IMG/VR virus record: IMGVR_UViG_3300033072_001087
Coordinates: 50,816-114,815 of that record
Direction: 5' to 3' (one strand)
Source of the DNA: a virus
Lineage: Duplodnaviria; Heunggongvirae; Uroviricota; Caudoviricetes
Length of the DNA stretch: 64,000 bases
The notes under the pieces are model-generated. The model made no database searches, was not told the origin of the DNA, and was given only the letters and a program-made list of their open reading frames with translations. Made by a program: the position numbers and the translations under genes. Position 1 is the stretch's first letter, and each line of letters opens with the position of its first letter. This document shows, in pieces, positions 5,807 through 50,402 of this stretch.

Positions 5807-7105
5807 GTGAAAAAATACAAAGTTACGGAACGCAAGATCACCGATTACCAGCCTGACCCAACAAATCCGAATTTGGGTTCTGAGGAGGGATTGGCATTCA
5901 TAGAAAAGAGCTTGCGTGAAGTCGGCGGTGGGAGATCGTTGGTTGCGGACGAGAAAGACATTCTTGTTGCCGGAAATAAGACGCAGGAAGCTGCGGTCAA
6001 TGCGGGGATTACCGATGTCATTGAGATCGAGACTGAAGGGGATGTACTGATCGTTCACAAGCGGCGCGATTGGGACGCAGAACAATTGAACGGCGAAGCG
6101 CGACGCTATACGTTTCTCGACAATCGCGCATCCGAATTGTCGATGCGTTGGAATCCCGAACAGGTCAAACTGAATCTCGACGCTGGTATGAAACTGACAG
6201 ATGTGTTTGATCCGTTGACGCTCAAAAAGCTCATGAATAGCATCACCGGCGAAAACAGCGGTGCGGATCCGAACCGCACATCGAAAGGGCAGGTGGATAA
6301 AGCCGAGCAGATCCGCGCAAAGTGGAATGTCGAGAGCGGACAGGTCTGGCAAATTCCAAGCAAGTTCCGCGATGGGGCAGTGCATCGCGTGATGTGCGGA
6401 GACAGTGCGCAAACGGCGGATGTAGAAAAACTGATGCAAGGGATTATCCCCGATTTGTCGGTCACGTCGCCGCCCTATGCGGTAGGCAAAGACTACGAAG
6501 GCGCAACGCTGCAGGACTGGCGCGCGATTATCGCCGGAGTCTTCGGGGTTATGAGCGCGTGGGGGAATATCTGGTTTGTCAATTTGGGCGATCAAAAGAT
6601 CGGCGATGATGGCTTTGAGCATCACACCTACGGTGAGATGGTCGATCATTTTGAACGATCTTACGGATACAAGATTCTCACCACGCGTATCTGGAAGAAG
6701 GATGCCGCGTGGCAAGCCGCGCCGTACTGGAATACGACCTACAAGGCGGTTGATGAATTTGAGTATCTTGGTGTCTTTGCCAAAGACAAACCTAAGCACA
6801 TCATTCGTGTCGAAGGGCAGGAATACAACGACTGGGCAATACGCGGCGTTTGGGATATTCCATCGGTCCGCGCCAATACGCTGCATTCCGCACAGTTCCC
6901 GGTTGAAATTCCAATCCGTGCTATCCGGTTGTACACCGATTTTGGGGGGACGGTTCACGATCCGTTTGGCGGAAGCGGGACGACATTGGAAGCCGCCGAA
7001 CGATTGGGAAGAACCGCCTATCTGATGGAAAAGCAGCCGCATTACGCGGCAGTCATTTTAGACCGTGCGGAGAGCATGGGACTGGAGCCGAAATGCGATG
7101 AGTGA
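5807..7105 (+). CDS. ParB-like nuclease domain fused to an N4/N6 DNA methyltransferase.
   Basis: N-terminal ParB-like region. Methyltransferase motif IV SPPY (VTSPPYAVGKDY) and motif I HDPFGGSGTT. GTG start with a gagg RBS. Confidence 0.8.
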   Translation: MKKYKVTERKITDYQPDPTNPNLGSEEGLAFIEKSLREVGGGRSLVADEKDILVAGNKTQEAAVNAGITDVIEIETEGDVLIVHKRRDWDAEQLNGEARRYTFLDNRASELSMRWNPEQVKLNLDAGMKLTDVFDPLTLKKLMNSITGENSGADPNRTSKGQVDKAEQIRAKWNVESGQVWQIPSKFRDGAVHRVMCGDSAQTADVEKLMQGIIPDLSVTSPPYAVGKDYEGATLQDWRAIIAGVFGVMSAWGNIWFVNLGDQKIGDDGFEHHTYGEMVDHFERSYGYKILTTRIWKKDAAWQAAPYWNTTYKAVDEFEYLGVFAKDKPKHIIRVEGQEYNDWAIRGVWDIPSVRANTLHSAQFPVEIPIRAIRLYTDFGGTVHDPFGGSGTTLEAAERLGRTAYLMEKQPHYAAVILDRAESMGLEPKCDE

Positions 7106-7691
7106 TACGACTTACGAATGGGAAAGACAGAGTAACGAGTCAGAAGATCAGTATCGCGCTTTTCTGATCTACCGTGATTTGGGGCTGAGTCGCTCACTCC
7201 AAAAGGCATGGAAACAATATTCGCCGGATGCAACAGATAATCCTTCATCCGCGTTTTCCGGGTGGTCTTCGCGGCATAAGTGGCGCGATCGCGCGCGCGA
7301 ATGGGATCGGCATCTACAGCGCCTTGAAGATGCGACACAGGAAAACGAGTTTAAGGCAGTTCGCCGTGCGGAGAAAAAGAATCGGCTGGAGATGCTCAAT
7401 GCCCTGCGTTTAACGGCGACATATCTAGCCAACATCACGATTGGCGATGACAAGAAGTTCACAAAGTCGGCTGACATTAAAAACGCGGCAGGCGTGATCG
7501 CCATGTATCTTGAGCAGTCGCGGATTGAGATGGGCGAGGCGGTCAAGGGCGGTCAAGAAATTACGGTAAACGCAAATACAAAGGTGGATGTCAGTGATGC
7601 AGTCGCAACAGCCAGAGAGCGGCTTCAATCTCTCGTTGCTGAAAAGCCTGCCAAAGCAGAAGCAGCAAGAGATAATAAGCTCGTTCAGTGA
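7098..7691 (+). CDS. Putative terminase small subunit.
   Basis: Position immediately upstream of, and overlapping, the large terminase. Helix-rich N-terminus. ATGAGTGA start/stop overlap with the upstream gene. Confidence 0.4.
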   Translation: MSDTTYEWERQSNESEDQYRAFLIYRDLGLSRSLQKAWKQYSPDATDNPSSAFSGWSSRHKWRDRAREWDRHLQRLEDATQENEFKAVRRAEKKNRLEMLNALRLTATYLANITIGDDKKFTKSADIKNAAGVIAMYLEQSRIEMGEAVKGGQEITVNANTKVDVSDAVATARERLQSLVAEKPAKAEAARDNKLVQ

Positions 7692-8973
7692 CGAGGAAAT
7701 CCTACAACTCCTATACTCGTGGGAGTTTATGGCGCGTCCAAACCAGCTGCCACCGAAAGGCGACTGGCGCATTTGGCTTTTGATGGCGGGCCGCGGGTTC
7801 GGGAAAACGCGAGTGCTGTCAGAGTGGGCGCGGCTCATGGCACACAAAATGCCGGGCAGTCGTGGAGCAATTATCGCAGCCACCGCCGCCGACTCGCGTG
7901 ATACCGTCGTTGAAGGGCATTCCGGTATTCTGAACGTGTGTCCGCCTTGGGACCGTCCTACGTATCAGCCGACTAAGCGTCTCGTGCTTTGGGGCAATGG
8001 ATCGCGCGCGACGTTATTCAGTGCGGATGAGCCGAACCGATTGCGTGGTCCGCAGTTTCATTGGGCGGTATGCGACGAGCTAGCGGCGTGGCGCTACCAG
8101 AGCGCTTGGGATATGTTGGAGTTCGGTTTGCGTTTGGGGCAAAACCCGCAGGTGGTTGTGGCGACGACTCCGAAACCCGTTGCGCACTTGCGACGTTTGG
8201 TTAAAGACTCTGAGGATCCCGAAAACAAGATCTTCATCACGACGGGATCGATGTACGAAAACATCGATAACCTTGCGCCGACGTTCATCCGCGCGATTCT
8301 GCGCAAATATGAAGGTACGCGGCTTGGGGAGCAAGAAATTCACGCTGTTCTTCATGAGGATGCCAAATATTCGCTCTGGAAAAGCACGATGTTCGAGCGC
8401 GAGGGCTTCCGTTTTACGGATATTCCGCCGCTGGAGCGCATTGTTGTGGCGGTGGATCCGGCGATCAAGTCTGGATCGGAACGCAATGATGATGAATTGG
8501 ACGACAAGGTAACAGAGACGGGAATCATCGTTGTTGGCGTTGATCGGCGCGATCACGGGTACGTCCTTGAAGACGCGACGATCGCCGGGTCGCCGAAAGA
8601 GTGGGCGGACGAAGCGGTGCGAATGTACAAGAAATACAAAGCGGATCGAATCGTTGTCGAAATCAACAACGGCGGTGAAATGGTGGCGCATACCATTCGC
8701 ACAAGTGATCCGAATGTAGCGATTGCCGAAGTAAGCGCTTCGCGTTCAAAGCAAACACGCGCCGAACCGGTTGTCGCGTTATACGAGCAATGGCGTATTC
8801 ATCATCGCGGTGTTTTAGCCGATTTAGAGACGCAGATGGTGCAGTGGGAGCCGGGCGCAAAGTCTCCCGATCGTATGGATGCGCTTGTATGGGGACTCAG
8901 CTACCTTCTGATTAATGATCAAGAGGAAGCCTTAGAAATGATGCAGGGGCATTATGAGCATGTTAGTCGATAA
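7588..8973 (+). CDS. Terminase large subunit.
   Basis: Walker A-like LMAGRGFGKT, Walker B VCDELAAW, and C-terminal nuclease-like acidic motifs (VVAVDPA...). Confidence 0.85.
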   Translation: MSVMQSQQPESGFNLSLLKSLPKQKQQEIISSFSDEEILQLLYSWEFMARPNQLPPKGDWRIWLLMAGRGFGKTRVLSEWARLMAHKMPGSRGAIIAATAADSRDTVVEGHSGILNVCPPWDRPTYQPTKRLVLWGNGSRATLFSADEPNRLRGPQFHWAVCDELAAWRYQSAWDMLEFGLRLGQNPQVVVATTPKPVAHLRRLVKDSEDPENKIFITTGSMYENIDNLAPTFIRAILRKYEGTRLGEQEIHAVLHEDAKYSLWKSTMFEREGFRFTDIPPLERIVVAVDPAIKSGSERNDDELDDKVTETGIIVVGVDRRDHGYVLEDATIAGSPKEWADEAVRMYKKYKADRIVVEINNGGEMVAHTIRTSDPNVAIAEVSASRSKQTRAEPVVALYEQWRIHHRGVLADLETQMVQWEPGAKSPDRMDALVWGLSYLLINDQEEALEMMQGHYEHVSR

Positions 8974-10375
8974 TATCCGCAAAGGGGCAGGGGGATTCCT
9001 GCGCAGCATGATCGGATCGGTCGGCGGCTTTGCCGTCTCGCGCTACGATTATCAAGCCTATTTTTCAACGCGCGATGTGTCGCGTTCTGATTACCAGACT
9101 TTTGATCGGATGCGCCGCGCTAAAGCGCGCGGTTTTGAGTTATCGGGGCTGTTCCTCAAGCCGATGGCATCGAAGGTTGCTTCGTGGGTCTTAGGTGCTC
9201 CGCCAGAATACAAGTTCCCTGATCGAAAGACTGAGATCGCGGTTGAAGACTGGTGGCGGCGTAATCATGCCGATGTATTGAGAGCCTACGAAGAGTCGGT
9301 CAATCTTGGCGATTGCTACGCAGTTATCAACGCCGATCTGACCGTAACCGTCGTGCCACCGCATGTAGTCAAAAAGATTGTTGACAAGAAGAATTTCAGC
9401 AAAATCATCGGCTATAAAATTACCGAGCGGTATCCCGATCCTGATAAACCGTCCAGCATTATGACCATCACCGACGAATATTACGCCACGCACCGTTGGC
9501 ATACGCGTGAGATCAATGGTAAACAAGTCTTCCGAAAAAGCTACAAAAACCTGATTGGCATCAATCCGGTGGTGCATATCAAGAATCAGTTGGGCGCGGA
9601 TGAGGAAAACGGCAGACCGGAAGGCGAAGCGCTGGTCGCGTTGTTACAAATCTACAATGAAACGTTGGTCGCAGCACTGAAGGGGAATATCCGGCAGGGC
9701 AGACCGACGCCCGTCATTCAGAAGATGGGAACCGCTTCGCAGCTTAAAGCGTTCTGGGAAAAGTTTGGCAAAACCGAAACCATTACGCTTCCAAACGGAA
9801 GAACAGAGACCATCACCACGATTCCGTTCGATCCCGATCAATTGTTGACAGTAGGCGGCGAGTCTGAGTTCAAGTACGAAGCACCCGGCTCTTTCAGCGC
9901 GGATACCGTTGCGCTGTTGCAAATCTTGTTTTATCTGATTGTGCAGTTCAGCGAAATCCCCGAATTTATTTGGGGCAATGCGATTGGCGCAAGCAAGGCG
10001 AGCGCCGAATCGCAGATCGAACCGTTCGTTAAGTGGTTGGGGAAAAAGCGATCGCGCGCCCATTCATGGCTCAATTCAATAGCGACAATTGTCTTAGCAT
10101 ACATTTCGCTATATGATGATAGTGTCAATCGAGATTCGCTTCCAAGTATTCAGTGGAAGCCGCTCACAAGCGCAGATGGACGCTTGACACTCGATACGGT
10201 TATCTGGGCATGGAGTCAGAATCTCTTTGACAACGAAACAGCAGTCGCTTTGCTGCCAGTCGGGATTAGCAATCCTAAAGCCGTTCTTGCCAAAGGATTA
10301 GCAGAACCACGACACATGCAAGCGCCAGTAACTACAGATAACAAGAGTGACGACACTGGTGGGAAACCTCAATGA
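8954..10375 (+). CDS. Putative portal protein.
   Basis: 473-aa ORF directly after the large terminase, of the size and position expected for a portal. No diagnostic motif recognised. Confidence 0.5.
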   Translation: MSMLVDNIRKGAGGFLRSMIGSVGGFAVSRYDYQAYFSTRDVSRSDYQTFDRMRRAKARGFELSGLFLKPMASKVASWVLGAPPEYKFPDRKTEIAVEDWWRRNHADVLRAYEESVNLGDCYAVINADLTVTVVPPHVVKKIVDKKNFSKIIGYKITERYPDPDKPSSIMTITDEYYATHRWHTREINGKQVFRKSYKNLIGINPVVHIKNQLGADEENGRPEGEALVALLQIYNETLVAALKGNIRQGRPTPVIQKMGTASQLKAFWEKFGKTETITLPNGRTETITTIPFDPDQLLTVGGESEFKYEAPGSFSADTVALLQILFYLIVQFSEIPEFIWGNAIGASKASAESQIEPFVKWLGKKRSRAHSWLNSIATIVLAYISLYDDSVNRDSLPSIQWKPLTSADGRLTLDTVIWAWSQNLFDNETAVALLPVGISNPKAVLAKGLAEPRHMQAPVTTDNKSDDTGGKPQ

Positions 10376-10926
10376 GTGCAAGCGCGTTAGAGCAGACATT
10401 CTCGTTGTACTGGCAGACGCATTATCCCGATGCGCCGCAGCCGCGACGAGAATACCTCTTCCATCCACAGATGGATTATCGTTTCGATTTTGCGTGGCGC
10501 GATCATTTGGTCGCGCTTGAGATTCAGGGCGGCGCGTTCACAGGCGGTAAGCACGGACGCGGCAACGGGCTAACTTCCGATTTCAAGAAAAATAATGCCG
10601 CTATTGCGTTGGGCTGGCGCATTATCTACGCCTCAAGCCCAATGCTGCGTGGCGTTGCAATTACCGAACTCGGCGAGATTATCGCAGATCTGGTTTGGAC
10701 TCCCTTCTCAATTGCTGATTTGGATCGTTCGCGTTGGACAGCCGTCATTCGCAATCTTAAGCCTAAAGACAGCGAGATGATGCGGGGAATTTGCGTTCAA
10801 CGCGTGAGTGCAGGTAAGTACACTGTTGAGAAAAATGGACTCAACCGGGTGTTTACCAAAAAGAAGCTCAAGCTGCACGAGCTTCAAAGCGGCGTATTGG
10901 ACTATATACTAGGCGATCAACCATGA
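10372..10926 (+). CDS. DUF559 / Vsr-like PD-(D/E)xK endonuclease-domain protein.
   Basis: YRFDFAWRDHLVALEIQGG resembles the DUF559 core (RxDF...LaIEvDG). Confidence 0.4.
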   Translation: MSASALEQTFSLYWQTHYPDAPQPRREYLFHPQMDYRFDFAWRDHLVALEIQGGAFTGGKHGRGNGLTSDFKKNNAAIALGWRIIYASSPMLRGVAITELGEIIADLVWTPFSIADLDRSRWTAVIRNLKPKDSEMMRGICVQRVSAGKYTVEKNGLNRVFTKKKLKLHELQSGVLDYILGDQP

Positions 10927-12122
10927 AAATCCTCTTCTACACCCCGACAGTCGGGCGCGGCGGCGTACATCGCGTCGTGGAAACCGTCTTGGCGCAAATT
11001 GTCAAACAGTATCCACAGCACACCTATCATGCTTTAGGGCAGCGCTACAACGAAGTTGGCGATAAAGTCAAATATCCGTGTGCGCTTACACAGATTCGCC
11101 CGGTCAAGAAGCTGCCAGATCACCCGGAACAATTCAAGTTCTTACTCGACAACGCGGACGTGTTTTATCAGCACTTAGCCGAAATTGCGCCCAAGTACGA
11201 TCTGATTTACGCGCCGTCGATCTGGTGGGGGCTTCCGAAAGGGGAGTGGGAGATCACTACGCCGTTGGTTGCGACTATCCCCGATTTCGCTTTCGACATC
11301 ATGAATATGGGGTCGATTGCGCAGCACTTTCGATCGGTGATCCGAAAACTTGGCGAATTCAGCAACACACTCGTCGTCCACAGCCGCTATTGGCAGCAGC
11401 ACGCGCAGCAAACCTACGGCACTCAAAACATCGAAGTTATCGAACATACGCGTGATTTCCTGAGTAAATCGTTCGATTACTCGTTCGCGGAAGGCGTACG
11501 GGTAAGAGAGAAATACGGGCTGCCGAACGAATATGTCTTGGCGTTTCATTGCTATGGACACAAAGACCCGATCACGATTTTGCACGGGCAGTTGTATGCG
11601 CGTTCGCGCTCGCCGTATGTGCCGCCATTGGTGATCGCCGGACTTGAAACCGAACAATACGTAGAGGGCGCGCCCATAAAAGGCGGAGCCGAGTCTCACG
11701 TACATGAGGTTCGACGAGCTATTCGCGAGATTAAGGCGACGCTTGGGCGCGACTTGTGGATCCTTGGCAAGTTACCGGATGAGGATATTGGCGGCTTATA
11801 CGCGATGGCGATGTGTGCGGTTTCCGCGTCGGTCTCGGAGGGCGACTTGCCGGGAACTGCGTTTGAGGCAATTGAGTCGCGCACGCCGTTCATTTGTTCC
11901 GATTTTCCGATTTTCACCGAAAAGCTGGGTGAAGACTGCGCGTGGATTTTCCCGCGCCGCAATGCGAACAAGTACGGGCAAGCGCTGATCGAGTGCGTCG
12001 AAAATCGCGAAGAAGCGCTTCGCCGTGTCAACAATGCACTAGAGCGTACCGGTAAGCGCTCGGTAAAAGACGTGGCAGCCGAGTACATGACTCTATTTGA
12101 AAAGGCGGTCAGTGATGTATAG
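10923..12122 (+). CDS. Glycosyltransferase family 1 (GT4-type).
   Basis: N-terminal MKILFYTPTVGRGGVHRVV (GT4 N-domain) and C-terminal E..GTAFEAIESRTPFICSD (E-x7-E-like) motif. Confidence 0.75.
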   Translation: MKILFYTPTVGRGGVHRVVETVLAQIVKQYPQHTYHALGQRYNEVGDKVKYPCALTQIRPVKKLPDHPEQFKFLLDNADVFYQHLAEIAPKYDLIYAPSIWWGLPKGEWEITTPLVATIPDFAFDIMNMGSIAQHFRSVIRKLGEFSNTLVVHSRYWQQHAQQTYGTQNIEVIEHTRDFLSKSFDYSFAEGVRVREKYGLPNEYVLAFHCYGHKDPITILHGQLYARSRSPYVPPLVIAGLETEQYVEGAPIKGGAESHVHEVRRAIREIKATLGRDLWILGKLPDEDIGGLYAMAMCAVSASVSEGDLPGTAFEAIESRTPFICSDFPIFTEKLGEDCAWIFPRRNANKYGQALIECVENREEALRRVNNALERTGKRSVKDVAAEYMTLFEKAVSDV

Positions 12123-13092
12123 GGTAGCGGTTACAGGCGTCGGCGGCGGCTGTGGACAGGCGATTGTCAAGGCGCTGCGCATGTCGAAACTCCCGTTGGA
12201 AATTTTTAAGGTAGACATCACCCCATTATCGGCTGGATTGTTTTTCAGTGATGCAGGTTTAAGCGCGGTGCTTCCCGCGCCGGAAAAGTCGCTGACGGAG
12301 TGGGAACAGTTCATCGACGAGTTCGGCATTGATGCGATCATTCCGGGTTCGGATCACGATTTGCTGCCGTTGTCGATCGCCTTCTCGCGGTCGGTCGCGT
12401 TGGTAGCAAAACCATCGTTTGTTCGGATCGCGAATGATAAGGCTGAAACATATCGTACCGGTATTTATGCAATTCCGTCGATTTACGCGGCCGCAAATAC
12501 CGATGACATCCTTGCCTTTGCCGAAGCGCACGGCTTTCCGCTGATCGTTAAACCGCGCAACGGAATGACATCGCGCGGTGTTTCGCTGGTCAACGATCTA
12601 GAGGAACTGCTGTTTTACTGGAAGCACACAGCCAATCCGATTGTACAAAAGTACATCGACGGCGATGAATACACTTGCGCGGTCTATTTTTCACGTAGAG
12701 GCGAACCGGTCGCATTCTTCCAGATGCGGCGCTGGTTATATGCAGGATCGACTTATCGCGCGGAAGTGACGCATCACCCCATTGTTGAAGAATTTATGCG
12801 CTGCACGGCGGTTGCTTTGCAGCGGTATCGTCCGACCGGCCCAGTGAATTTGCAAATGCGATTGGACGCCAATAACACACCACATCTACTGGAAATCAAT
12901 GCGCGTTGTTCGGGTTCGACCGCAATGCGCGCGCATTTTGGCTACAACGAGCCAGAGATGCTGCTGCGTGAATATTGCGCAGGTGAAGACATCGAAATGC
13001 CAAAAACGCGAGATGGGGTCGCGATGCGTTATTGGGATGAATTGTACGTTGATAACGCGACGATCGAGGACATCAAAGGATTCAACCGGTGA
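12115..13092 (+). CDS. ATP-grasp domain enzyme.
   Basis: FPLIVKPRNGMTSRGVSLV and LEINARCSGST are ATP-grasp signatures. The ATG at 12115 overlaps the GT stop codon. Confidence 0.7.
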   Translation: MYRVAVTGVGGGCGQAIVKALRMSKLPLEIFKVDITPLSAGLFFSDAGLSAVLPAPEKSLTEWEQFIDEFGIDAIIPGSDHDLLPLSIAFSRSVALVAKPSFVRIANDKAETYRTGIYAIPSIYAAANTDDILAFAEAHGFPLIVKPRNGMTSRGVSLVNDLEELLFYWKHTANPIVQKYIDGDEYTCAVYFSRRGEPVAFFQMRRWLYAGSTYRAEVTHHPIVEEFMRCTAVALQRYRPTGPVNLQMRLDANNTPHLLEINARCSGSTAMRAHFGYNEPEMLLREYCAGEDIEMPKTRDGVAMRYWDELYVDNATIEDIKGFNR

Positions 13093-13994
13093 AAATCTTA
13101 GTGACAGGCGGAGCCGGGTACGTTGGCTCTGTATTAATTGGGGATATGCTCAATCTTGGTTACTCGGTGGTCTGTTATGATCGACTTGATCACGGAATAT
13201 CCCCGATTGCGGGGTATCTAGAACACCCGAATTTTGCGCTAATTGTCGATGACATCCGGCGCGGCTACGCGCTGCAGCAAGCGCTTTTGAAAGCGGATGC
13301 GGTCATTCATTTGGCTGCGCTGGTGGGGTATCCGATTTGTGAGCAATCACCGAAGGAGGCCGAAGGCATTAACCTTTTCGGATCGATCATGCTCAATGAG
13401 TCGCGATCGAAACATCAGCGTGTAATCTACGCGAGTACCGAGAGCGTTTACGGTGGCGTCAAAAATGCCGATAATGGCATATTGCACGAGTGGATGCAGA
13501 CCGATCCGCATTCAGTGTATGCGCGCACGAAATTGGACTCGGAATCCCCATTTTTGGATAAGGGGAATGCGGTTGTGTTTCGTTTCGCCACCGGATATGG
13601 GTTATCACCAAGAATGCGCGCTGATACGATGGTCAATGATTTTACCCGCCAGATTGTAAGGTCTGGAACGCTGTCGTTGTATGAGCCAAATGTATTGCGG
13701 TCGTTTGTTCATGTGCGGCAAATGGCGCGTGTTCTCCTACATGGACTTGGTGCATTTGAGGGATTATACAACGTTAGCGAGATCGGACTGCGCAAAGAAG
13801 CGTTGGTCAAGAAAATAATCGATCAAGTCGGCTACGGGCATGTAACCTATGGAGAGGGTGCGGATCTAGAGATGCGCGACTACTTCATGGATTGCAGCAG
13901 ACTACGCGAAAGTGGATTTGAGTTTCAGCCGATCCACATGGAATCGGCGATTAAAGCGATGGCGAGGTACTTTACACATGATACCGCTTGCTAA
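13089..13994 (+). CDS. NAD-dependent epimerase/dehydratase (SDR family).
   Basis: MKILVTGGAGYVGSVL Rossmann motif plus a YxxxK-type region. GTGA overlap with the upstream gene. Confidence 0.8.
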   Translation: MKILVTGGAGYVGSVLIGDMLNLGYSVVCYDRLDHGISPIAGYLEHPNFALIVDDIRRGYALQQALLKADAVIHLAALVGYPICEQSPKEAEGINLFGSIMLNESRSKHQRVIYASTESVYGGVKNADNGILHEWMQTDPHSVYARTKLDSESPFLDKGNAVVFRFATGYGLSPRMRADTMVNDFTRQIVRSGTLSLYEPNVLRSFVHVRQMARVLLHGLGAFEGLYNVSEIGLRKEALVKKIIDQVGYGHVTYGEGADLEMRDYFMDCSRLRESGFEFQPIHMESAIKAMARYFTHDTAC

Positions 13995-15063
13995 TCCAGA
14001 CATCACCAAAGTCGAACGCCGTCATGTCCTGCAGGCGCTTTGGTCAAACACCATTTCCGGCACGGGTCCACAAATTCGTGAATTTGAGGCGGCATGGGAA
14101 CAGCGCAGCGGGCGCAAACGCGCTTTCGCGGTGAGCAATGGCACCGTAGCGCTGGAGATCGCACTGCAAGCCATCGGCATTGGACCGGGGGATGAAGTAA
14201 TTGTTCCAGCATTGACATTCGCCGCGCCTGCTGCGGCGGTGCGCAGACTTGGAGCGACTCCGGTGTTTGCGGATGTTGGGGTGGATGCTGTAATCAACGT
14301 GCTATCGGTCGCCGAGCGAATTACCGAAAAGACGCGCGCAATCATCGCCGTCGATACGCTTGGCAACATCCCTGACTACAATGCGTTGATGGATCTGGCC
14401 TTCTATTACGGACTGACCGTCATCGAAGACGCGGCTGAAGCACATGGATCGAGTCGTTTGGGAAAACTCAGCGGAACCTTCGGACACATCTCGACCTTTT
14501 CTTTCCACGCCAACAAAACCATCACGACGGGCGAGGGCGGCATGATTCTACTAGACGACGACGACACGATCGGAGTCATTGAATTGATCCGCAATCATGG
14601 CATGAGAAAGCCATATATCCATGAAGTCGTCGGAACAAACGGTCGAATGACGAGCCTGACTGCGGCCCTCGGTATCGGGCAAATGCAGCGCTGGGACGAA
14701 ATCATGCAGCGTCGCAAAGAGATCGATCGCGCTTATGATGCTGTGCTACCAAGCGTGTATTATTCACTGCCCATATCGCCTAATACTTCCAGAATTGTGT
14801 GGCTGAAAACGATTTGCGTTCGGGATGAACATCACGACGGATTGCGCGATCGAATCGTCCACCGACTGCGGGAAGCGCAAATCGACGCGCGCGCCATCTG
14901 GCCGCCGTTGACCGGGCTGAAACCGTATCAGTCGGAGCCGCTGCCGGTTGCTGAAATCGTGAGCGGGAATTCGTTCTGGCTGCCCACCTATAATACATTG
15001 GGTGATGATGATATTTACCGGATTGGAGAGGAATTGAGGATCGCTTATGAACGAGAGAATTGA
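13978..15063 (+). CDS. DegT/DnrJ/EryC1/StrS-family PLP-dependent sugar aminotransferase.
   Basis: Motifs VIEDAAEAHGS and FSFHANKTITTGEGG (the PLP lysine region) are typical of DegT aminotransferases. Confidence 0.8.
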   Translation: MIPLANPDITKVERRHVLQALWSNTISGTGPQIREFEAAWEQRSGRKRAFAVSNGTVALEIALQAIGIGPGDEVIVPALTFAAPAAAVRRLGATPVFADVGVDAVINVLSVAERITEKTRAIIAVDTLGNIPDYNALMDLAFYYGLTVIEDAAEAHGSSRLGKLSGTFGHISTFSFHANKTITTGEGGMILLDDDDTIGVIELIRNHGMRKPYIHEVVGTNGRMTSLTAALGIGQMQRWDEIMQRRKEIDRAYDAVLPSVYYSLPISPNTSRIVWLKTICVRDEHHDGLRDRIVHRLREAQIDARAIWPPLTGLKPYQSEPLPVAEIVSGNSFWLPTYNTLGDDDIYRIGEELRIAYEREN

Positions 15064-15232
15064 TGCGCCAATGCGTGAAGTTCGCTGTCCGACGTGCAAC
15101 CATCTGTTGTTTTACGCAGATTCGTTGTCAAAACCGTACATCGAAATCAAGTGTTCATCGTGCAAGCATATCATCGCCGTTAATGGCGAAAATCAGGTCG
15201 TCAAGGTTGTGACGAAAAGAGTTGCGGAGTAG
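15047..15232 (+). CDS. Mu Com-like zinc-ribbon protein.
   Basis: VRCPTCNHLLFYADSLSKPYIEIKCSSCKHIIAV closely parallels Mu Com (RCKNCNKLLFKADSFDHIEIRCPRCKRHII). Confidence 0.6.
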   Translation: MNERIDAPMREVRCPTCNHLLFYADSLSKPYIEIKCSSCKHIIAVNGENQVVKVVTKRVAE

Positions 15233-15281
15233 CCTATTGCTATTCTGCAAAATAGTCTTACAATTGAGAAAGAATTAATTA

Positions 15282-15320
15282 GACGCCGTGAGCGCAATTC
15301 GTCTCACGGCGTCTTTTATT
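15282..15320 (+). terminator. Rho-independent terminator.
   Basis: Perfect 11-bp stem gacgccgtgag/ctcacggcgtc with a 10-nt loop, followed by TTTTATTT. Confidence 0.7.
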
Positions 15321-15331
15321 TGGAGAAAAGG

Positions 15332-16837
15332 ATGGAAACCGTCTATCTCAAGCTACCGGATGCGCTTAAGGAAGCGCTTGGAAGCATCAGCGGTGTGAAT
15401 GCTGAGAATTTGACGCTTCCAATCGCGACCATCCTAGACGACGCAGACGAAAACGCCGTCAGCGAAGCGCTGGATTATTTTGCGCAAGTCAGTGGCAAAG
15501 TCACAGGCAAAATCTCGTCACTCAGTCGTAATTTTGGCGATGAACAAGATCGGGTTGTAGTTGAACTTTTTTCAGAGAACTATAACTTTGGATACTTAGA
15601 TTTTGTTTTCTGGCTCTACGACATTAATGGTGCGGTAAGCAATCGGTTAAGTATCGAACTGATGACCATCGCGAAATCAGAGAGTATGCCGGGTGCAAGC
15701 TTATCGACGGAAATGTACGAATTTCGCGAATTGGTCTATCGCGACACAACGCGTGATTTAGCGGTCAAGGTACTCGGAGTAGGGGAGATGGCGAACGCGA
15801 AGCCAATGCTGGTCACAGAGAATCTACAGAAAAAAGACGGGCGATTGATGGTTGAAATGCGCGTCCGTGCGCAGTATGACCCATCGGCGTATCCCAAAAT
15901 CGCGCTGCCGTCCGATATTGTCGAAGGCAGCGGCGAAATGTTCATTACGCTGCCGGTGGCGGCGTTCGATGCGGAGTCCTTGAACGGACACACGTACCTT
16001 GAAAGTTCCGTCCGCGACATGCTCAACCAAATTAACGATCGCCGACCGGAATCCAACTGGGGGCATATCCCCGATCACGAGTTCTCGACGCGTTACGGCG
16101 CGCCACCAGTTCGCTGGCTGGCAGCGGTTGAGCAGGGCGGGACGATTTTTGCGCGCGGTCGCGTGTTGACGGACGAAGCGCGAACCTACTATGCCCGCGC
16201 TGACATGGACAAGGCGCGTGTTGGCACGAGTTTGTTTGCGTGGGTCGAAATGGAAGATGACCGCGTAATGCACATGGATCTGATCACGATTGATCTGGCG
16301 GATCCGGCACGAGTGGGTGTTCCGTTGACGGCGGCGCGTGCGGCTGTCAATGTTACCGAGATGAGTAAAGTCAAACAAGAGGCAGGAGCGGAAGAAATGC
16401 TGGAAGCGAAAGTGCGCGAACTGCTTGCGATTGACGAGTCTGCCGATGTCGAAAAGGAATTGGCGGCTGTAATCGAGTCAAGCAAGCTGGCACAGGAACA
16501 CGAAAAGGCGTTGGTTGAACTTGAGAACGAAAAAGTCGAATTGCAGTCGCAAATTGACGCGCTGAAGGAACAGGGCGCGGAATGGGCGAAGCAGTTTGTG
16601 GCGCTTTCGATCCCGGTTGAATTGGCGCGACAAACAGTTCTCGATCTGATGGATTTTTCGAAGATCGAAAACGTCGAACAAGCAAAGGAACAGCTGAAGG
16701 CGATCAAATCGCGTGCAGATGTTATTGCGCTCATCAAGGCTGGCGTGGTTGAAGAGTCCGGCCCTCCACAAAAACGCGGCACTGACGATGGTAGTGCTGG
16801 CGGCAAGTTCTTCAAGATTCCAGAAAGAGAGGAATAG
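15332..16837 (+). CDS. Head morphogenesis protein with a long C-terminal coiled coil (putative scaffold or protease-scaffold fusion).
   Basis: Sits between the portal region and the decoration/capsid genes. C-terminal heptad-rich segment (VRELLAIDESADVEKELAAVIESSKLAQEHEKALVELENEKVELQSQIDALKEQ). ATG at 15332 with a ggagaaaagg RBS. Confidence 0.4.
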   Translation: METVYLKLPDALKEALGSISGVNAENLTLPIATILDDADENAVSEALDYFAQVSGKVTGKISSLSRNFGDEQDRVVVELFSENYNFGYLDFVFWLYDINGAVSNRLSIELMTIAKSESMPGASLSTEMYEFRELVYRDTTRDLAVKVLGVGEMANAKPMLVTENLQKKDGRLMVEMRVRAQYDPSAYPKIALPSDIVEGSGEMFITLPVAAFDAESLNGHTYLESSVRDMLNQINDRRPESNWGHIPDHEFSTRYGAPPVRWLAAVEQGGTIFARGRVLTDEARTYYARADMDKARVGTSLFAWVEMEDDRVMHMDLITIDLADPARVGVPLTAARAAVNVTEMSKVKQEAGAEEMLEAKVRELLAIDESADVEKELAAVIESSKLAQEHEKALVELENEKVELQSQIDALKEQGAEWAKQFVALSIPVELARQTVLDLMDFSKIENVEQAKEQLKAIKSRADVIALIKAGVVEESGPPQKRGTDDGSAGGKFFKIPEREE

Positions 16838-16840
16838 TTC

Positions 16841-17218
16841 ATGGCTGGAAATCTGACGTACTTTGAAAGCGACGGCAAGTCAGTCACGGTCGATCTGACC
16901 TCGACAGTGCCGAAAGATCAGATCGCTTATGTTAGCGGTTTCTTGGGCATCGCGCTTCAATCCGGCGACAGCGGCGACTCGATTGCGCTGAATGTCGATC
17001 ATCGCGAGTATCAGTTTGTCGTGCCATCGGGCTTGTCGGTGTCGAAGGGCGATATTGTCTACATTGACACCGCCGATCTCACCGGCCATCTTCCAGACGA
17101 CACGGCATGGTCAACATCGGCTGGCTCTGGGAAAATTCGTTTGTGCAAGGCGACCTCGGCGAAGGACGCCAACAACATCGTTACAGGCATTCTTCTTGCA
17201 GGAGAACACGCGTCATGA
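16841..17218 (+). CDS. DUF2190-like head decoration protein.
   Basis: 125 aa. Pattern Y..DGK.V...S.G...VSGF.GIAL.SGDSGDSIAL resembles DUF2190 proteins found between protease and capsid genes. Confidence 0.5.
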   Translation: MAGNLTYFESDGKSVTVDLTSTVPKDQIAYVSGFLGIALQSGDSGDSIALNVDHREYQFVVPSGLSVSKGDIVYIDTADLTGHLPDDTAWSTSAGSGKIRLCKATSAKDANNIVTGILLAGEHAS

Positions 17219-18231
17219 AGATTATTTCTAAAGAGCAACTGATCAAGAGCCGCGACGTTGCTGCCGTAAGCGGCGAAGTCGATCTGAGAAAAGAACTCAG
17301 AATCGTTGAAAATTCGCCGGGGCGGACGGTGGTCGAGTTTGTCGGCACCGACGACTTCCGCGCCGAATGGTATGATCGTCAGCGCTACGAAGTTGACGCC
17401 GGACGCGACAGCGAACCGCTGCTGTATCAGCCGCTCTACCAAGAGACGGTTGATGCGTCGCTCCCACGCAACGTCACGGTCTTTCGTATCGGGCCGGGCG
17501 CTGTGGTCTTCGAAGAAATCTACGAAGGCGGCGAAGTCAAGTTCGTGACTGTCAATCAGTCCAACTATTCGGTTCAGATGCACCACTATGCGGTCGGTCT
17601 CGAATACGGGAAAGACCTCGTGATGTACAACGAACTGTGGAACTTGCCGATCATCGAACGTCAGGCGGGGATCGCGTTTAACGCGCTCAAGAATCACATC
17701 CACCTGAATCCGTTCATCAGCTATTCCTATGGCGCTGCCAATCAGACCGCCGCCAACACAGGCGGGGATTCGATTGTCGAGAATTACCTGCGCACGCTGG
17801 AAGACGCTGTGACGAACGCGACGGAAGATACAACCAATCCGCGCCGTGGCCCGTACTGGATTTTGTGCAGTACCGCCAATTTGTTCACGCTAGAACGCGC
17901 TTTGACGCGTGTGCCGCAAGAAGGCTTCACGCTGCAGTCGTCAGTGATGAACATGGTTCAGGGCATCATCGCCTACAACGGCTGGAGCGGAATGCGCGGA
18001 CACAAGGCAACCAGCTACAGCGGCGTCAGCGCCAACAAGTTGTACCTGATCGATGCGTCGGACAAGCTGCGTAATCTGCGCTCATTCGTCAAGCAGGATC
18101 TTGCGCCGACGATGGGCAACGAAGACGTGAGCCGCTTCATTTTGGAACAGGTCGTGTGGGACACGTACTTCACGATGTACGCCGACATTCCGGCGACGAC
18201 GGAAGAAGTGACGCTGCCAACAACGGCGTAA
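17215..18231 (+). CDS. Major capsid protein (HK97-like).
   Basis: 339-aa ORF immediately after the decoration-like gene, at the canonical position. No motif-level proof. Confidence 0.55.
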   Translation: MKIISKEQLIKSRDVAAVSGEVDLRKELRIVENSPGRTVVEFVGTDDFRAEWYDRQRYEVDAGRDSEPLLYQPLYQETVDASLPRNVTVFRIGPGAVVFEEIYEGGEVKFVTVNQSNYSVQMHHYAVGLEYGKDLVMYNELWNLPIIERQAGIAFNALKNHIHLNPFISYSYGAANQTAANTGGDSIVENYLRTLEDAVTNATEDTTNPRRGPYWILCSTANLFTLERALTRVPQEGFTLQSSVMNMVQGIIAYNGWSGMRGHKATSYSGVSANKLYLIDASDKLRNLRSFVKQDLAPTMGNEDVSRFILEQVVWDTYFTMYADIPATTEEVTLPTTA

Positions 18232-18233
18232 TC

Positions 18234-19247
18234 ATGAACATCTTCGCGCACACATGGGAACTTGCCGACAGCTATGGAAGGCTTGCCATTGAAACCGCAG
18301 ACGCCATTGAGCGCGTCTGCGGCGTGCAGGTTAATCGGGTCGGCGAACACAAACTTAACAAGCCAATCAAGCCCATGTTTGGCGGGGTTCTGACGGCGTA
18401 TCCGACGCAGTTTTGGAAGTACGGCCCGTTGTCGGAATTTGGAACACGAGTTGCGCTGACGATGTTTGAGTCAGACGCGCTGCCGATGGATTGGATCGAT
18501 CCGTTAAATGGTTGCGATACGGTAATTGTGCCGTCTAAGTGGCTGGTGGACGTATTTAAGTCCAGCGGGGTAACGAAGCCGGTATACGCGGAATCCATCG
18601 GAGTGAGCAGCGCGTTTCGATATGTCAAACGCAAGTCGAGTCCGGTGTTTAAGTTCTTGGCGATCGGCGATCACGCGGGTCGTAAGGGCGTGCATGATGT
18701 CCTATTCGAGTTCGTCCGGGCTTTCGGGGATCGGGATGATGTGCATCTATTCATCAAGACGCGCCACGCAACAATGGCGGGGTTTATGAACAAAAACATC
18801 ACGTTGATCAACGAAGAACTGAACGACGCGGATATGGCACGGCTGTATTGGGAATGTGACTGCATGGTGTTCCCGACGAAAGGTGAAGGGTTCGGGCTTC
18901 CGCCGCGCGAGTTTGCGGCGACCGGTGGAATCGCGCTGGTCACGAATTGGGGCGGCACGGCAGATGACATCGAACGTTGGGGAATACCGTTGCCATACAC
19001 GCTGGAAAGCGCGTGGGCGGGCGGCAAATTCGAAGGTATTGGGCGTTGGGCGCAGGTAGATCGCGTCCATTTGCGCACGCTGATGCAGTGGGTAGCGGCA
19101 ATGCCGTATGCTGCACGAATGGCGCTTGGCGCGGCATACGCTGAGAATGTCGCAGAGATGTACACATGGGATCGGTTCGGCAAGCGCGTTTACGAGATAT
19201 GGAGTGAGGCAAATGCCAACAGCCACACAGTACGCGCGGGTGCGTAG
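18234..19247 (+). CDS. Glycosyltransferase family 1 (GT4-type), second copy.
   Basis: FPTKGEGFGLPPREFAATGGIALVTNWGG is the GT4 C-terminal EX7E-type motif. Starts 3 nt after the capsid gene stop. Confidence 0.65.
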   Translation: MNIFAHTWELADSYGRLAIETADAIERVCGVQVNRVGEHKLNKPIKPMFGGVLTAYPTQFWKYGPLSEFGTRVALTMFESDALPMDWIDPLNGCDTVIVPSKWLVDVFKSSGVTKPVYAESIGVSSAFRYVKRKSSPVFKFLAIGDHAGRKGVHDVLFEFVRAFGDRDDVHLFIKTRHATMAGFMNKNITLINEELNDADMARLYWECDCMVFPTKGEGFGLPPREFAATGGIALVTNWGGTADDIERWGIPLPYTLESAWAGGKFEGIGRWAQVDRVHLRTLMQWVAAMPYAARMALGAAYAENVAEMYTWDRFGKRVYEIWSEANANSHTVRAGA

Positions 19248-39636: not shown

Positions 39637-40170
39637 ATGAAAAGGTTCATGCAGCGTTACGCCGAAGGACGCACTTGGTTCGCTTTGTTTACGCGTGATA
39701 GCGACAGCCCACAGCCCTTTGCCATTGTTGATATACGCGACTCTGCGCTCTTGCGTAACTTCTTTTCGCGTGCATTTTCGCAGTATAACCACCGACTGAT
39801 TTCAGATTCGCTGATGCACTACATTGAACAGAGTGAATGGGATCGGCAAGGCTATTTTGACGCCATTATCCGCGTCGGTCGCCGCCACCCAAGTCGATCA
39901 CAAATGTTCCTACTGTCCTATGCGGCAACCCATACGGGATGGTTTCGCTTTCCCGAAGAAATGCGCGCCGACGTTTCCACTAAGAGCCTGTTTGTCTGCA
40001 CGGAACGGGGTTGGATGGCATGGAACGATGGCAACTATCGCATTACATCGGAAGGGCGTCGCGTCCTAAGAAATGCAATCCTAGATGAACGAGATCGAGA
40101 AAAATCAAGCCGGGATAAACGCCGCGCTCGGCAAAATCGCCAACGCGGCGGCGCAGGCGACAGCACTTGA
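39637..40170 (+). CDS. Hypothetical protein with basic C-terminal tail.
   Basis: 177-aa ORF. C-terminus RDKRRARQNRQRGG. Confidence 0.35.
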   Translation: MKRFMQRYAEGRTWFALFTRDSDSPQPFAIVDIRDSALLRNFFSRAFSQYNHRLISDSLMHYIEQSEWDRQGYFDAIIRVGRRHPSRSQMFLLSYAATHTGWFRFPEEMRADVSTKSLFVCTERGWMAWNDGNYRITSEGRRVLRNAILDERDREKSSRDKRRARQNRQRGGAGDST

Positions 40171-41080
40171 CACCTACAAATTAGACCTTGCCCCAAATAC
40201 ATTGGATCGTCAACGGCGCGATTTGTCGCTCTTTGCGGATTACTTGATGGGAAAAGGGATGCGCGTCGGCGATCTGTTCAACAGCGCCGAGGCGTGGCGT
40301 GGTATTACGTGGGGATTGGTCAAGGGGTTCGGGTTGTGGATGCAGCACAAGGGATACGCGTTGGGTTCGGTTGCGGTTAGATTTGCAACCGTCAAGCGCT
40401 ATGCCGCGCTTGCTGTACAATCTGGAATAATCGACGCAAATGAGGGCGCATTGATTAAATCCTTGCGCCCCTTTACGAACACACGCAATGTCGATGCAAA
40501 ACGCGCCAGAACACGTCTGGGCGCGAAAAAAGCCCATTCTACAGACTTGACGTTAGAGCAGCGAAAAACCCTCAAAGAACGCGCCTCCTCTACCCCACAA
40601 AGCGCGTGTTACGCCCTGCTCATGTGTTTACTTCTTGATCACGGTCTTAGAGTATCGGAGGTCATTCTGCTTACTGACGCGAACGTAGACACTACCCTGT
40701 GGACTCTCAGTTTCTATCGTCCAAAGGTTGATCGTCACGATATTCACCGCATGACGCAAGACACAATCCATGCTTACTTAGCCTACAAACCGTTTATAAT
40801 AGAAGGCGAGAAGCTGCTGCGTCAATCAGAACGCGGCGGCGCATTAGGCAAGCCCGGATTAACGCGTGGCGGCGTCGAACAAATCGTCAAACGACTTGGG
40901 AAAAACATCGGGGTCCCATCGCTCTCGCCCCATGATTGTCGGCATTCTTGGGCAACAGAATACGAGAAGAAACACACGCCGTTTGAACTGCGCGACGCAG
41001 GGGGCTGGAACAGCTTGGATATGCCAAATCGCTATGTCAACCGAAAACGAATCAGCAATCAAGGAGAGGACTTGGAATAA
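40085..41080 (+). CDS. Tyrosine recombinase / phage integrase.
   Basis: C-terminal catalytic region HDCRHSWATEY...GGWNSLDMPNRYV (R..H..R..Y). N-terminal SAM-like core-binding region. The true start may be downstream of 40085. Confidence 0.8.
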   Translation: MNEIEKNQAGINAALGKIANAAAQATALDTYKLDLAPNTLDRQRRDLSLFADYLMGKGMRVGDLFNSAEAWRGITWGLVKGFGLWMQHKGYALGSVAVRFATVKRYAALAVQSGIIDANEGALIKSLRPFTNTRNVDAKRARTRLGAKKAHSTDLTLEQRKTLKERASSTPQSACYALLMCLLLDHGLRVSEVILLTDANVDTTLWTLSFYRPKVDRHDIHRMTQDTIHAYLAYKPFIIEGEKLLRQSERGGALGKPGLTRGGVEQIVKRLGKNIGVPSLSPHDCRHSWATEYEKKHTPFELRDAGGWNSLDMPNRYVNRKRISNQGEDLE

Positions 41081-42285
41081 TGTTTGGCGTGAATATACTG
41101 GCGCAATTCCTCAAAGATCGAAATCGCGCCATTGACTTTGTGTACGATCTCAAGCCCAATGCGCTGTTGGTGATGGACGATCGACAGCTGGCATTAGATT
41201 TAGCGTTTTCGCCAAAACTGCCAACGACGACGGTTGTTTACCGCGCCTACGATCCACACGACGATTCGTGGCATCTAAGAAACAGCGCGAGCGAGATATG
41301 GAACTGGCACAAACGCTTCGCGCATCCGAAACTCGTCATGCAGATCTGGAACGAGCCGTCTGGATACGTGAACGTCGAAGCGTTGGTCGAAAAAGCGGTT
41401 GACATTGTGCATATGGCTTCTGCAGACAACTTAAGAGTGGTCATGCCGATGTGGGGCGTCGGACATCCCGATAACAAGTTGATCAGCAGTGGGGTTTTAG
41501 ATCCGCTGATCGAAACGCTCTACCAACACCCGGAACAGTATTACGGCGTTCATGAATACGCCAGAACATCCATTGCAGAAGCGATTGACGAAGACCATGT
41601 ACTGCGCTGTGTCGCTTTCTTGGAACGCGCAAAAAAGATCGGCTGCCCGATTGCGGCTCAGCGCATCATCGTCGGCGAATTTGGGCGTGACTACATGGGG
41701 CGCTATGAAGATGGCTATCGCGATAACATGACCAGCGAGGGCTATGCTGTCATGCACCGGAGTGCTGAAGAAGCATACCGCGCCTACGGCATCAACAAGG
41801 TTATTACGTTTTGCATGGGCAACGGCGGCGGCAATCGGTGGGAGAAGTTCAATATCGAAGGAGACGAGATCGTGCAAGACGCGCTTATCGACATCAACAC
41901 AAAATCAATCACGGAGCCCCCACCTGCGGTCGAACCGCCGGTTGAATCAAAGAAGTATTACGGCATCATTCAAACCACTGCTCTACGCGTGAATGTCAGA
42001 GAAGCCCCTTCCCTCAACGCGAAGGTTGTAACAACAGTCACGGGCGGAAATGTTGTCGAATACATGCCGGACTCGGTTGTGATGGATGAGAATGGGCGCG
42101 CATGGTTCATGCTGATTGAACCGCGCGGCTATCTTGCGTCATGGGCGGCTTGGGTTCAAAGCATTACAAGCGATCAAGGTTCTATCGATCGGATTGCCAA
42201 ACTTAACGATGACATCACGGATGCGCTGACACGCGCCGCAAGCGCTGTTGGCGAGATAAAAGACATACTGAACTCGATCAAGTAG
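41080..42285 (+). CDS. GH5-like glycoside hydrolase domain fused to a C-terminal SH3b domain (candidate lysin or depolymerase).
   Basis: QIWNEPSGY (GH5 NEP acid/base) and IIVGEFGR (GEFG nucleophile-like). C-terminal YYGIIQTTALRVNVREAPSLNAKVVTTVTGGNVVEY...DENGRAWFMLIE resembles bacterial SH3b. Confidence 0.5.
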   Translation: MFGVNILAQFLKDRNRAIDFVYDLKPNALLVMDDRQLALDLAFSPKLPTTTVVYRAYDPHDDSWHLRNSASEIWNWHKRFAHPKLVMQIWNEPSGYVNVEALVEKAVDIVHMASADNLRVVMPMWGVGHPDNKLISSGVLDPLIETLYQHPEQYYGVHEYARTSIAEAIDEDHVLRCVAFLERAKKIGCPIAAQRIIVGEFGRDYMGRYEDGYRDNMTSEGYAVMHRSAEEAYRAYGINKVITFCMGNGGGNRWEKFNIEGDEIVQDALIDINTKSITEPPPAVEPPVESKKYYGIIQTTALRVNVREAPSLNAKVVTTVTGGNVVEYMPDSVVMDENGRAWFMLIEPRGYLASWAAWVQSITSDQGSIDRIAKLNDDITDALTRAASAVGEIKDILNSIK

Positions 42286-50143: not shown

Positions 50144-50190
50144 GCCTCGTTTCTGGCGGATGCGTAGTGCATCCGCCAGTGCGTGTGTTC

Positions 50191-50391: not shown

Positions 50392-50402
50392 GACAGACTC
50401 CT

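Follow-up and report, generated by a model that had tools for sequence, protein, structure and literature searches.

Why should a tailed phage carry a set of sugar-building enzymes among the genes that assemble its head? The question is raised by a 64,000-nucleotide stretch of viral DNA (positions 50,816 to 114,815 of IMG/VR record IMGVR_UViG_3300033072_001087, from a member of the Caudoviricetes), hereafter the window, where a cassette of six genes separates the portal gene from the scaffold and capsid genes. This block is best explained as a vertically inherited glycosylation module built into a siphovirus-type head-assembly operon. As for its function, we give about an even chance, judging from sequence comparison, to a late-expressed and self-contained pathway that glycosylates a head protein.

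A cassette between the portal and capsid genes

The six genes lie on the plus strand. They encode, in order, a 184-amino-acid (aa) DUF559/Vsr-like protein (10372-10926; phrog_503, E 1e-20), a GT4 glycosyltransferase (10923-12122; Pfam and AlphaFold fold), an ATP-grasp ligase (12115-13092; Pfam ATPgrasp_Ter, NCBIfam NF009402), an extended short-chain dehydrogenase/reductase (SDR; 13089-13994; Pfam Epimerase, E 1.5e-23), a DegT aminotransferase (13975-15063; Pfam E 1e-96) and a Com-like zinc ribbon (15047-15232; phrog_13819 gpCom, E 4.7e-9). A preliminary description of the window had proposed these enzyme identities for a gene block between portal and scaffold/capsid; profile matches agree with the GT4, ATP-grasp, SDR, DegT and Com-like assignments, and all of the open reading frames (ORFs) are present. 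The portal gene (8954-10375, plus strand; phrog_64, E 6e-8) forms the upstream boundary. Downstream, also on the plus strand, the cassette is bounded by the gene for a prohead protease/scaffold-like protein (15332-16837; weak PHROG head matches), followed by those for a head decoration (cement) protein (16841-17218; Pfam Phage_cement_2, phrog_122) and the major capsid protein (17215-18231; similarity to phage capsids). Adjacent cassette reading frames overlap by 4-20 nt, and the portal stop and the start of the 184-aa gene share an ATGA overlap: the six cassette genes and the portal gene are translationally coupled. No transmembrane segment is found in any cassette protein.

A second glycosyltransferase gene, GT2 (18234-19247, plus strand; phrog_2170, E 3.7e-23), was overlooked in the preliminary description. 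It starts 2 nt past the capsid stop and encodes a canonical EX7E motif (EGFGLPPRE at residue 218). We compared the window with related loci on metagenomic contigs (numbered with an L; L003-L007 are contigs of 115-126 kb and L002 is a 6-kb fragment). GT2 lies directly 3' of the capsid gene in L003-L007, L014, L015, L001, L022 and L024, is present in all eight cassette loci with sequence past the capsid gene, and stays next to that gene even where capsid identity falls below detection. GT2 belongs to the same system as the cassette. The order portal, cassette, protease/scaffold, decoration, capsid and GT2 is itself shared by L002-L007, L014, L015, L023 and L024, and in part by L016; it is not random, and turns up in nine or more independent contigs of metagenomic phages. 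We favor virion glycosylation because of this late-operon position and because GT2 always directly follows the capsid gene.

The predicted sugar-building enzymes

The SDR carries GGAGYVG at residue 7, S116/T117, S119 and Y144xxxK148, all invariant in seven phages. Within its S-T-(E/G)-S motif, the residue after the catalytic Thr is Glu in the window and in L002 but Gly in the remaining five phages; the alignment of the seven lacks the acid/base pair (TDE or TSE) that marks 4,6-dehydratases. On account of this motif without the acid/base pair, we rejected the SDR as a classical 4,6-dehydratase. A dehydratase coupled to DegT had been put forward as the route to an amino sugar: the amino-sugar route stands, but the SDR, given its S-T-(E/G)-S, probably does not act as a 4,6-dehydratase. 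In the PDB it matches 6VO6/6VO8 best (E 2.5e-46, the next best being 3e-16). We take 6VO6 to be Cj1427, a GDP-heptose C4-dehydrogenase. Cj1427 oxidizes GDP-glycero-manno-heptose at C4 with 2-oxoglutarate, which yields a 4-keto GDP-sugar (PMC10680097, PMC9978623). The SDR is a predicted nucleotide-sugar C4-dehydrogenase.

The Pfam match of DegT spans positions 2-359 of 360, and its catalytic pyridoxal phosphate (PLP) lysine is Lys181, in an SFHANK motif. Members of the DegT family with a PLP-binding lysine are aminotransferases, and those with a histidine are of the dehydratase type; the presence of Lys181 therefore marks this protein as an aminotransferase. Its best PDB match is GDP-perosamine synthase (E 1e-61). 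In NCBIfam, LegC and PseC fit best but stay below cutoff, as do all equivalogs (PseC, LegC, ArnB and WecE), LegC scoring highest with 239 against 420. The pairing of a C4-dehydrogenase with a 4-aminotransferase would be coherent and even cofactor-coupled, because transamination releases 2-oxoglutarate.

The ATP-grasp protein matches ATPgrasp_Ter (E 1.5e-13) and NF009402, a 'carbamoyl-phosphate-synthase-like protein' (237 against a cutoff of 218), and has no close characterized relative. Its slot in the cassette is occupied in L015, L016, L023 and L024 by a PglD-like hexapeptide acetyltransferase, which in two of these lineages (L015 and L016) is fused to GT4 itself. In one bacterial cluster, homologues of DegT and ATP-grasp (38% identity each) are adjacent, beside PglF-like, PglD-like and FemAB genes; other bacterial ATP-grasp homologues are found in nonulosonic-acid and bacillosamine-type sugar clusters. 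Because a PglD-like acetyltransferase fills the slot and because of these bacterial sugar-cluster contexts, we infer that the ATP-grasp enzyme N-acylates a 4-amino sugar. Amidation of the amino sugar, one of the initial proposals, thus remains the best reading of this protein and is strengthened by the N-acetyltransferase of the sister phages. A scan of IMG/VR with ATP-grasp alone returned no match, and tblastn of ATP-grasp and DegT against cultured phages returned unrelated contexts only. A match to 'Aphanizomenon phage Yong-DA' was discarded, the record resembling a plasmid with an exopolysaccharide cluster.

GT4, assigned to the retaining enzymes of CAZy type GT4, matches Pfam Glycos_transf_1 with 31.7 bits (cutoff 26.4) and Glyco_transf_4 with E 1e-5. 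Its AlphaFold model (pLDDT 94.5) has a GT-B fold with two Rossmann-like domains, and its best PDB neighbours in Foldseek are MshA, BshA, WaaG, PglA and PimA (TM 0.65-0.75, at only 13-19% identity), so that structure prediction and fold search bear out the initial naming of this gene. As modeled, the fold confirms the family and not the acceptor: the search against the PDB and viral models gave generic GT-B neighbours and no acceptor clue. The C-terminal domain has E306-x8-E315, one residue longer than the canonical EX7E. The GT4 family is small (48 matches), and the six contigs that we looked up were all cassette-bearing phage loci bar one, a distant homologue in a polysaccharide cluster.

The fold neighbours MshA, BshA and LmbT glycosylate small molecules, and all of the module's proteins are soluble. 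Both facts would suit a pathway whose end product stays in solution, be it a nucleotide-sugar, a metabolite or a glycosylated small molecule (a thiol, for example), and reprograms the host or poisons competitors. We consider such a function improbable: the structural neighbours are similar only at the low identity given above, and two separate transferases tied to head genes over long evolutionary distances would be hard to explain.

A proposed route to a glycosylated head protein

In the pathway that we propose for virion glycosylation, the SDR would oxidize C4 of a host nucleotide-sugar, probably GDP-linked, for example GDP-mannose or GDP-heptose. DegT, with glutamate, would convert the resulting 4-keto sugar into a 4-amino-4-deoxy sugar, and the 2-oxoglutarate released could re-oxidize SDR-bound NADH if the SDR is Cj1427-like. 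Comparative genomics then suggests that the ATP-grasp ligase would join a carboxylic or amino acid to this 4-amine by an amide bond, an N-acylation that would be performed in sister phages by the PglD-like acetyltransferase. The soluble GT4, together with the soluble post-capsid GT2, would transfer the N-acyl amino sugar to an acceptor that, from gene position, is most likely a head surface protein (capsid or decoration), giving a glycan-coated virion.

More specific versions of this scheme are possible but doubtful. In one, the capsid would receive a coat made of a self-made sugar, a 4-amino sugar amide-linked by ATP-grasp to an amino acid or other acid, and the Com-like protein would bind RNA and couple this synthesis to head assembly. 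We are equally tentative about the further idea that the N-acyl group of such a coat is swapped by lineage (ATP-grasp against acetyltransferase, sometimes sulfotransferase), as under diversifying pressure.

The favored case for a head-protein acceptor comes from gene position: the two transferases, both soluble, lie within the late head operon, have reading frames coupled to it and have been retained there over large evolutionary distances. The decoration protein (16841-17218) and the major capsid protein (17215-18231) are the candidate acceptors. Several observations weigh against this interpretation. We saw no direct sign of the acceptor. No Ser, Thr or Asn column in the capsid and decoration alignments tracks the transferases. 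The Thr/Ser-rich capsid C-terminus was considered as acceptor and rejected, since TLP(T/S)(S/T) also occurs in transferase-free relatives. The fold neighbours of GT4 act on small molecules, lipids and glycans and are generic only, and its most distant cellular homologue lies in an ABC-transporter polysaccharide cluster. GT2 homologues in L001 (11983-13119) and L024 (16808-17920) match PF20706, 'GT4 in conflict systems' (E 5e-5 and 3e-10), a model that the GT2 copy of the window falls short of. The sugar is probably GDP-linked, an assignment that comes from the nearest characterized homologues, at modest identity. Finally, all of the loci are metagenomic and the group has no cultured phage.

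The enzymes might instead act on the host envelope, altering a glycan of the cell wall, the S-layer or a lipid-linked polysaccharide so as to exclude superinfecting phages, mask receptors on debris or convert the serotype. Serotype-converting phage glycosyltransferases are well established (PMC12619734), the cellular homologues of GT4, DegT and ATP-grasp are all found in polysaccharide or nonulosonic-acid clusters, and a tyrosine integrase in the window means that the phage may be temperate. We nevertheless regard an envelope target as unlikely. The genes are coupled into the late head operon, far from the integrase and without a promoter of their own, and neither an initiating phosphoglycosyltransferase nor a flippase, polymerase or membrane protein is encoded in the module. 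Prophage-like relatives in genome bins (L018-L021) lack both transferases, and the persistence of GT2 next to the capsid gene, even past detectable capsid identity, also speaks against an envelope substrate.

Another potential substrate is the phage DNA itself, an amino sugar on a modified base serving restriction evasion. The block has the terminase and portal genes as neighbours, and DNA modification is a major investment of this phage, which has a PurZ-like gene and no fewer than five methyltransferase-like genes. GT-B transferases of T-even phages glycosylate DNA, and the Com protein of phage Mu regulates a DNA-modification gene. However, GT2 is tied to the capsid gene and not to replication genes. 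The DNA glycosyltransferase genes known so far lie beside nucleotide metabolism genes, with early or mid-infection expression, and not in a head operon; the location found here is atypical. Among the scanned ORFs of the window, which covers 64 kb of a genome of about 115 kb, we found no dCMP or dUMP hydroxymethylase or other pathway to a sugar-accepting base. DNA hypermodification has no positive support, and its probability is in our view slight.

Conservation and history of the cassette

In L002-L007, the genes follow one another as in the window: methylase, terminases, portal, 184-aa gene, GT4, ATP-grasp, SDR, DegT, Com, protease/scaffold, decoration, capsid and second transferase. The four cassette enzymes (GT4, ATP-grasp, SDR and DegT) are 67-73% identical to those of the window in L002 and 45-54% in L003-L007, and the large terminase, portal and capsid proteins of L003-L007 are 65-75% identical to their window counterparts. 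Portal identity ranges over 31-67% among the related loci and capsid identity over 42-75%; cassette identities fall broadly in step with those of the head genes.

More distant loci keep variants of the cassette, all without the 184-aa gene. L014 has GT4, ATP-grasp, SDR and DegT. L015 has an acetyltransferase::GT4 fusion, a second GT4, a sulfotransferase-like gene, SDR, DegT and Com, and L016 an acetyltransferase::GT4 fusion and DegT. L023 and L024, where the portal is only 31% identical, have a Mu-F-like head protein, GT4, a hexapeptide acetyltransferase and DegT. The sulfotransferase-like gene of L015 (13019-13753; Sulfotransfer_2, E 7e-6) lies in the interval between the second GT4 and the SDR and hints at a sulfated glycan in that phage.

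The preliminary description had taken the DUF559-like gene in front of the sugar enzymes as a hint of mobile insertion. The 184-aa protein has no direct match in Pfam (even at E 10), in NCBIfam or among PDB sequences, and its single-sequence AlphaFold model (pLDDT 38) is too poor for use. An exhaustive HMMER search placed its N-terminal approximately 100 residues in a very large family with 7272 cluster representatives. DUF559 is matched by 15 of 44 aligned homologues and REase_MTES_1575 by 8 of the 44; the family profile has a sole and weak PDB match, the endonuclease-like 3HRL (E 0.24), and conserves D39, E50, H61 and K73. The DUF559 label is supported through homologues but not through the protein's own direct matches. 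By transitive homology, an N-terminal PD-(D/E)xK-type nuclease fold is a reasonable prediction.

Could the block be a recent selfish or moron insert, brought in by this DUF559-like nuclease and without a role in the phage life cycle? The DUF559-like domain does belong to a nuclease-fold family, the block ends in a terminator and the cassette is missing from some relatives. Yet its GC content, GC content at third codon positions (GC3) and codon usage are indistinguishable from those of neighbouring genes, and even in phages with cassette proteins of only 35-54% identity no gene is broken or out of order. In the distant L014, L015, L023 and L024, the cassette is found at this site unaccompanied by a DUF559-like gene, and the terminator and its spacer are kept in L015 too. 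As for the DUF559-like gene, it is confined to the close clade L003-L007, where it is fixed in position and not sporadic. Given this normal composition, the coupling to the portal gene and the divergence of the cassette together with the head genes across a wide phage group, the hint of mobile insertion does not hold. On composition and synteny we rejected a recent horizontal insertion; the idea of a selfish insert is largely refuted already by this analysis, and we find it very improbable.

The vertically inherited module has also been lost in places, if our reconstruction is right. GT2 occurs without the cassette in L001, where it is followed by a methyltransferase gene, and in L022; L018-L021 have neither. 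By capsid identity (59-64%), these last four are nested among cassette-bearing lineages. Because transferase-free relatives nest in this way, ancestral presence of the cassette and later loss is the simplest history, which we regard as indicative only, the counts being few and phylogenetically dependent.

Capsid relatives lie on contigs from Chloroflexia, Phototrophicaceae and Anaerolineae genome bins, one of them mid-way in a 572-kb contig, and for this reason the phage group probably infects Chloroflexota. GenBank phages include no close relative (best capsid identity, 30%), and megablast of the 10-kb region against them gave no match. The best capsid similarity, to phages of C. difficile and Bacillus, extends over 99% of the length.

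Two of the cassette-free loci have peculiarities of their own. In L001, an IMG/VR phage, a 1236-aa Mu-F-like head protein occupies the position of the window's sugar cassette, and two EAD1-domain genes (356-1690), one fused to a CHAT protease domain, lie just upstream of the terminase gene. In L018, a prophage-like locus from a Chloroflexia bin, positions 8200-8300 and other spacers contain many copies of the palindrome GGGCGCACAGCCGTGCGCCC, which resembles repetitive extragenic palindromes (REP) or miniature inverted-repeat transposable elements (MITE).

The junction with the protease/scaffold gene

The cassette ends with the Com-like gene in the window and in L002, L003, L005, L007 and L015. 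Its 61-aa product has two CxxC pairs in the pattern RCxxCxxLLFxADS...IEIxCxxCK and scores 21.5 bits with Pfam Zn_ribbon_Com, just below the cutoff of 22.9; precomputed matches flag this domain in several relatives. No mom-type gene follows on the 3' side, the next gene being the protease/scaffold gene. The latter probably starts at ATG 15332, which has GGAG upstream, and residues 187-340 of its product form a core kept in all relatives.

At the DNA level, the 100-nt spacer between the two genes (15233-15331) is better preserved than the genes on either side of it. On the plus strand, a consensus scan found in it a promoter-like TTGCTA-16-TACAAT (15237-15264), followed by an intrinsic terminator (15281-15322) made of a G+C-rich hairpin of 12-14 bp (15281-15314) and a T-run. 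The spacer has a folding energy of -33.6 kcal/mol (z-score -5.3). The terminator is kept in five relatives; the alignment of six phages has compensatory changes at two base pairs, and pairing holds in 94% of its cells. The strong terminator that had been seen to close the block is thus corroborated by hairpin and T-run, by the spacer's z-score and by covariation across the six phages. The corresponding spacer of L015, whose capsid is only 42% identical, contains TTGAAC...TATAAT and a counterpart of the hairpin. No Rfam family matches the conserved spacer. A long-range helix that would hide the ribosome-binding site of the scaffold gene appears in the window's own fold and was rejected, being absent from the consensus fold.

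We think that the Com-like ribbon and the spacer with its promoter-like element and terminator probably tune expression at the protease/scaffold junction. We can only speculate that the Com-like protein helps to control the head genes, through translation or antitermination. The placement of the promoter-like element directly before the terminator recalls antitermination-controlled late promoters.

Comparison with known systems

To our knowledge, virion glycosylation in bacteriophages is documented only for a few actinobacteriophages, where it depends on host sugars. In mycobacteriophages, it uses host nucleotide-sugars and is not known to involve an SDR/DegT/N-acylase route. Capsid and tail-tube proteins of Che8, Corndog and cluster O are glycosylated by phage-encoded transferases (Freeman et al. 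2023, as reported in PMC11600133), and PMC11600133 describes such decoration for clusters O and F. Cluster O combines a transferase with a methyltransferase; here, GT2 stands beside the capsid gene, with a methyltransferase gene after it in L001. The mycobacteriophages differ in their actinobacterial hosts and in having a C-terminal tail as acceptor, whereas in the present group no tail tracks the transferases and glycosylation is a prediction from the genes.

A closer parallel for the chemistry is Mimivirus, in which the R141 dehydratase, the L136 aminotransferase, the L142 N-acetyltransferase and glycosyltransferases, within a nine-gene cluster, glycosylate the fibres (PMC4691112). The phage would, like Mimivirus, oxidize or dehydrate a nucleotide-sugar, transaminate it at C4, N-acylate it and transfer it to the virion surface. 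Mimivirus, a eukaryotic giant virus, starts from UDP-glucose with a true 4,6-dehydratase and acylates in an acetyl-CoA-dependent manner; the window belongs to a tailed phage, its SDR lacks the dehydratase pair and ATP-grasp replaces the acetyltransferase.

The Campylobacter PglF/PglE/PglD pathway to UDP-diNAcBac, with the GT4 enzyme PglA, has in common with the cassette a 4-keto sugar, a DegT enzyme, a PglD-type N-acyl step and a GT4. Sister cassettes carry PglD_N/hexapeptide domains, and PglA is among the GT4 fold neighbours. The Pgl system, however, assembles its glycan on a lipid carrier and transfers it with a periplasmic oligosaccharyltransferase; no such components are found here. The resemblance of SDR and DegT to Cj1427 and GDP-perosamine synthase is at the family level only, with 6VO6 taken to be Cj1427.

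Com of phage Mu is a translational activator of mom. The Com-like protein is close to it in sequence pattern and matches the gpCom PHROG, but it is not followed by a mom-like gene and its Pfam score is below cutoff. With the T-even DNA glucosyltransferases and other DNA-glycosylating GT-B enzymes, GT4 shares the character of a soluble, phage-encoded GT-B enzyme; those enzymes are encoded among early nucleotide-metabolism genes and need a hydroxymethyl-pyrimidine, for which no gene is seen among the scanned ORFs of the window.

In the literature searched, we found no published description of an equivalent phage module. It differs from the systems above in that a tailed phage would make its own modified sugar, with a non-dehydratase SDR, an ATP-grasp enzyme in place of an acetyltransferase and a fixed location between portal and scaffold. 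If the virion is the target of the module, glycosylation of virions by a self-sufficient route would extend beyond giant viruses, and this would be the first tailed-phage counterpart of their autonomous glycosylation. Because the acylating enzyme has been exchanged between lineages, the chemistry of the glycan may be under selection, for instance from host defences, from grazers or for adsorption to host sheaths and exopolymers. The module would also supply glyco-engineering with an ATP-grasp sugar-amine ligase and a compact C4-oxidase/aminotransferase pair.

Other features of the window

In ORF, Pfam and PHROG scans, the plus strand of the window reads as a classical siphovirus late operon. 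It starts with a DNA methyltransferase gene (5807-7105), followed by those for the small terminase (7065-7691; phrog_6299) and the large terminase (7588-8973), all on the plus strand and upstream of the portal gene. On the 3' side of the capsid region lie connector genes and the genes for a major tail protein, chaperones and a 1769-aa tape measure protein.

DNA methyltransferase-like genes number at least five: the one that starts the operon and four on the minus strand (42484-43257, 44397-45293, 47026-47820 and 57625-58242). Three of them are of the N6_N4_Mtase type, one is a Dam-type D12 and one matches phrog_799. An adenylosuccinate-synthetase homologue is encoded at 53515-54663 on the minus strand (Pfam E 1e-49; PurZ-type phrog_1211, E 1e-60). 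This PurZ-like gene is flanked on the same strand by a kinase-like gene (phrog_3043) and a phrog_2971 gene, at 52484-53536 and 54664-55722. The phage may therefore have a 2-aminoadenine (Z) genome, although the best solved relatives of the PurZ-like protein are cellular PurA enzymes.

A T4-type RNA ligase and a polynucleotide-kinase 3'-phosphatase/HAD protein (45947-47029 and 49625-50599, both minus strand) are likely an RNA (tRNA) repair pair. The tyrosine integrase (40085-41080, plus strand) suggests a temperate lifestyle despite the genome size of about 115 kb. It is followed by an SH3-domain protein that is a possible lysin (41080-42285, plus strand), and an SPFH/Band7 protein is encoded on the opposite strand at 50403-51773.

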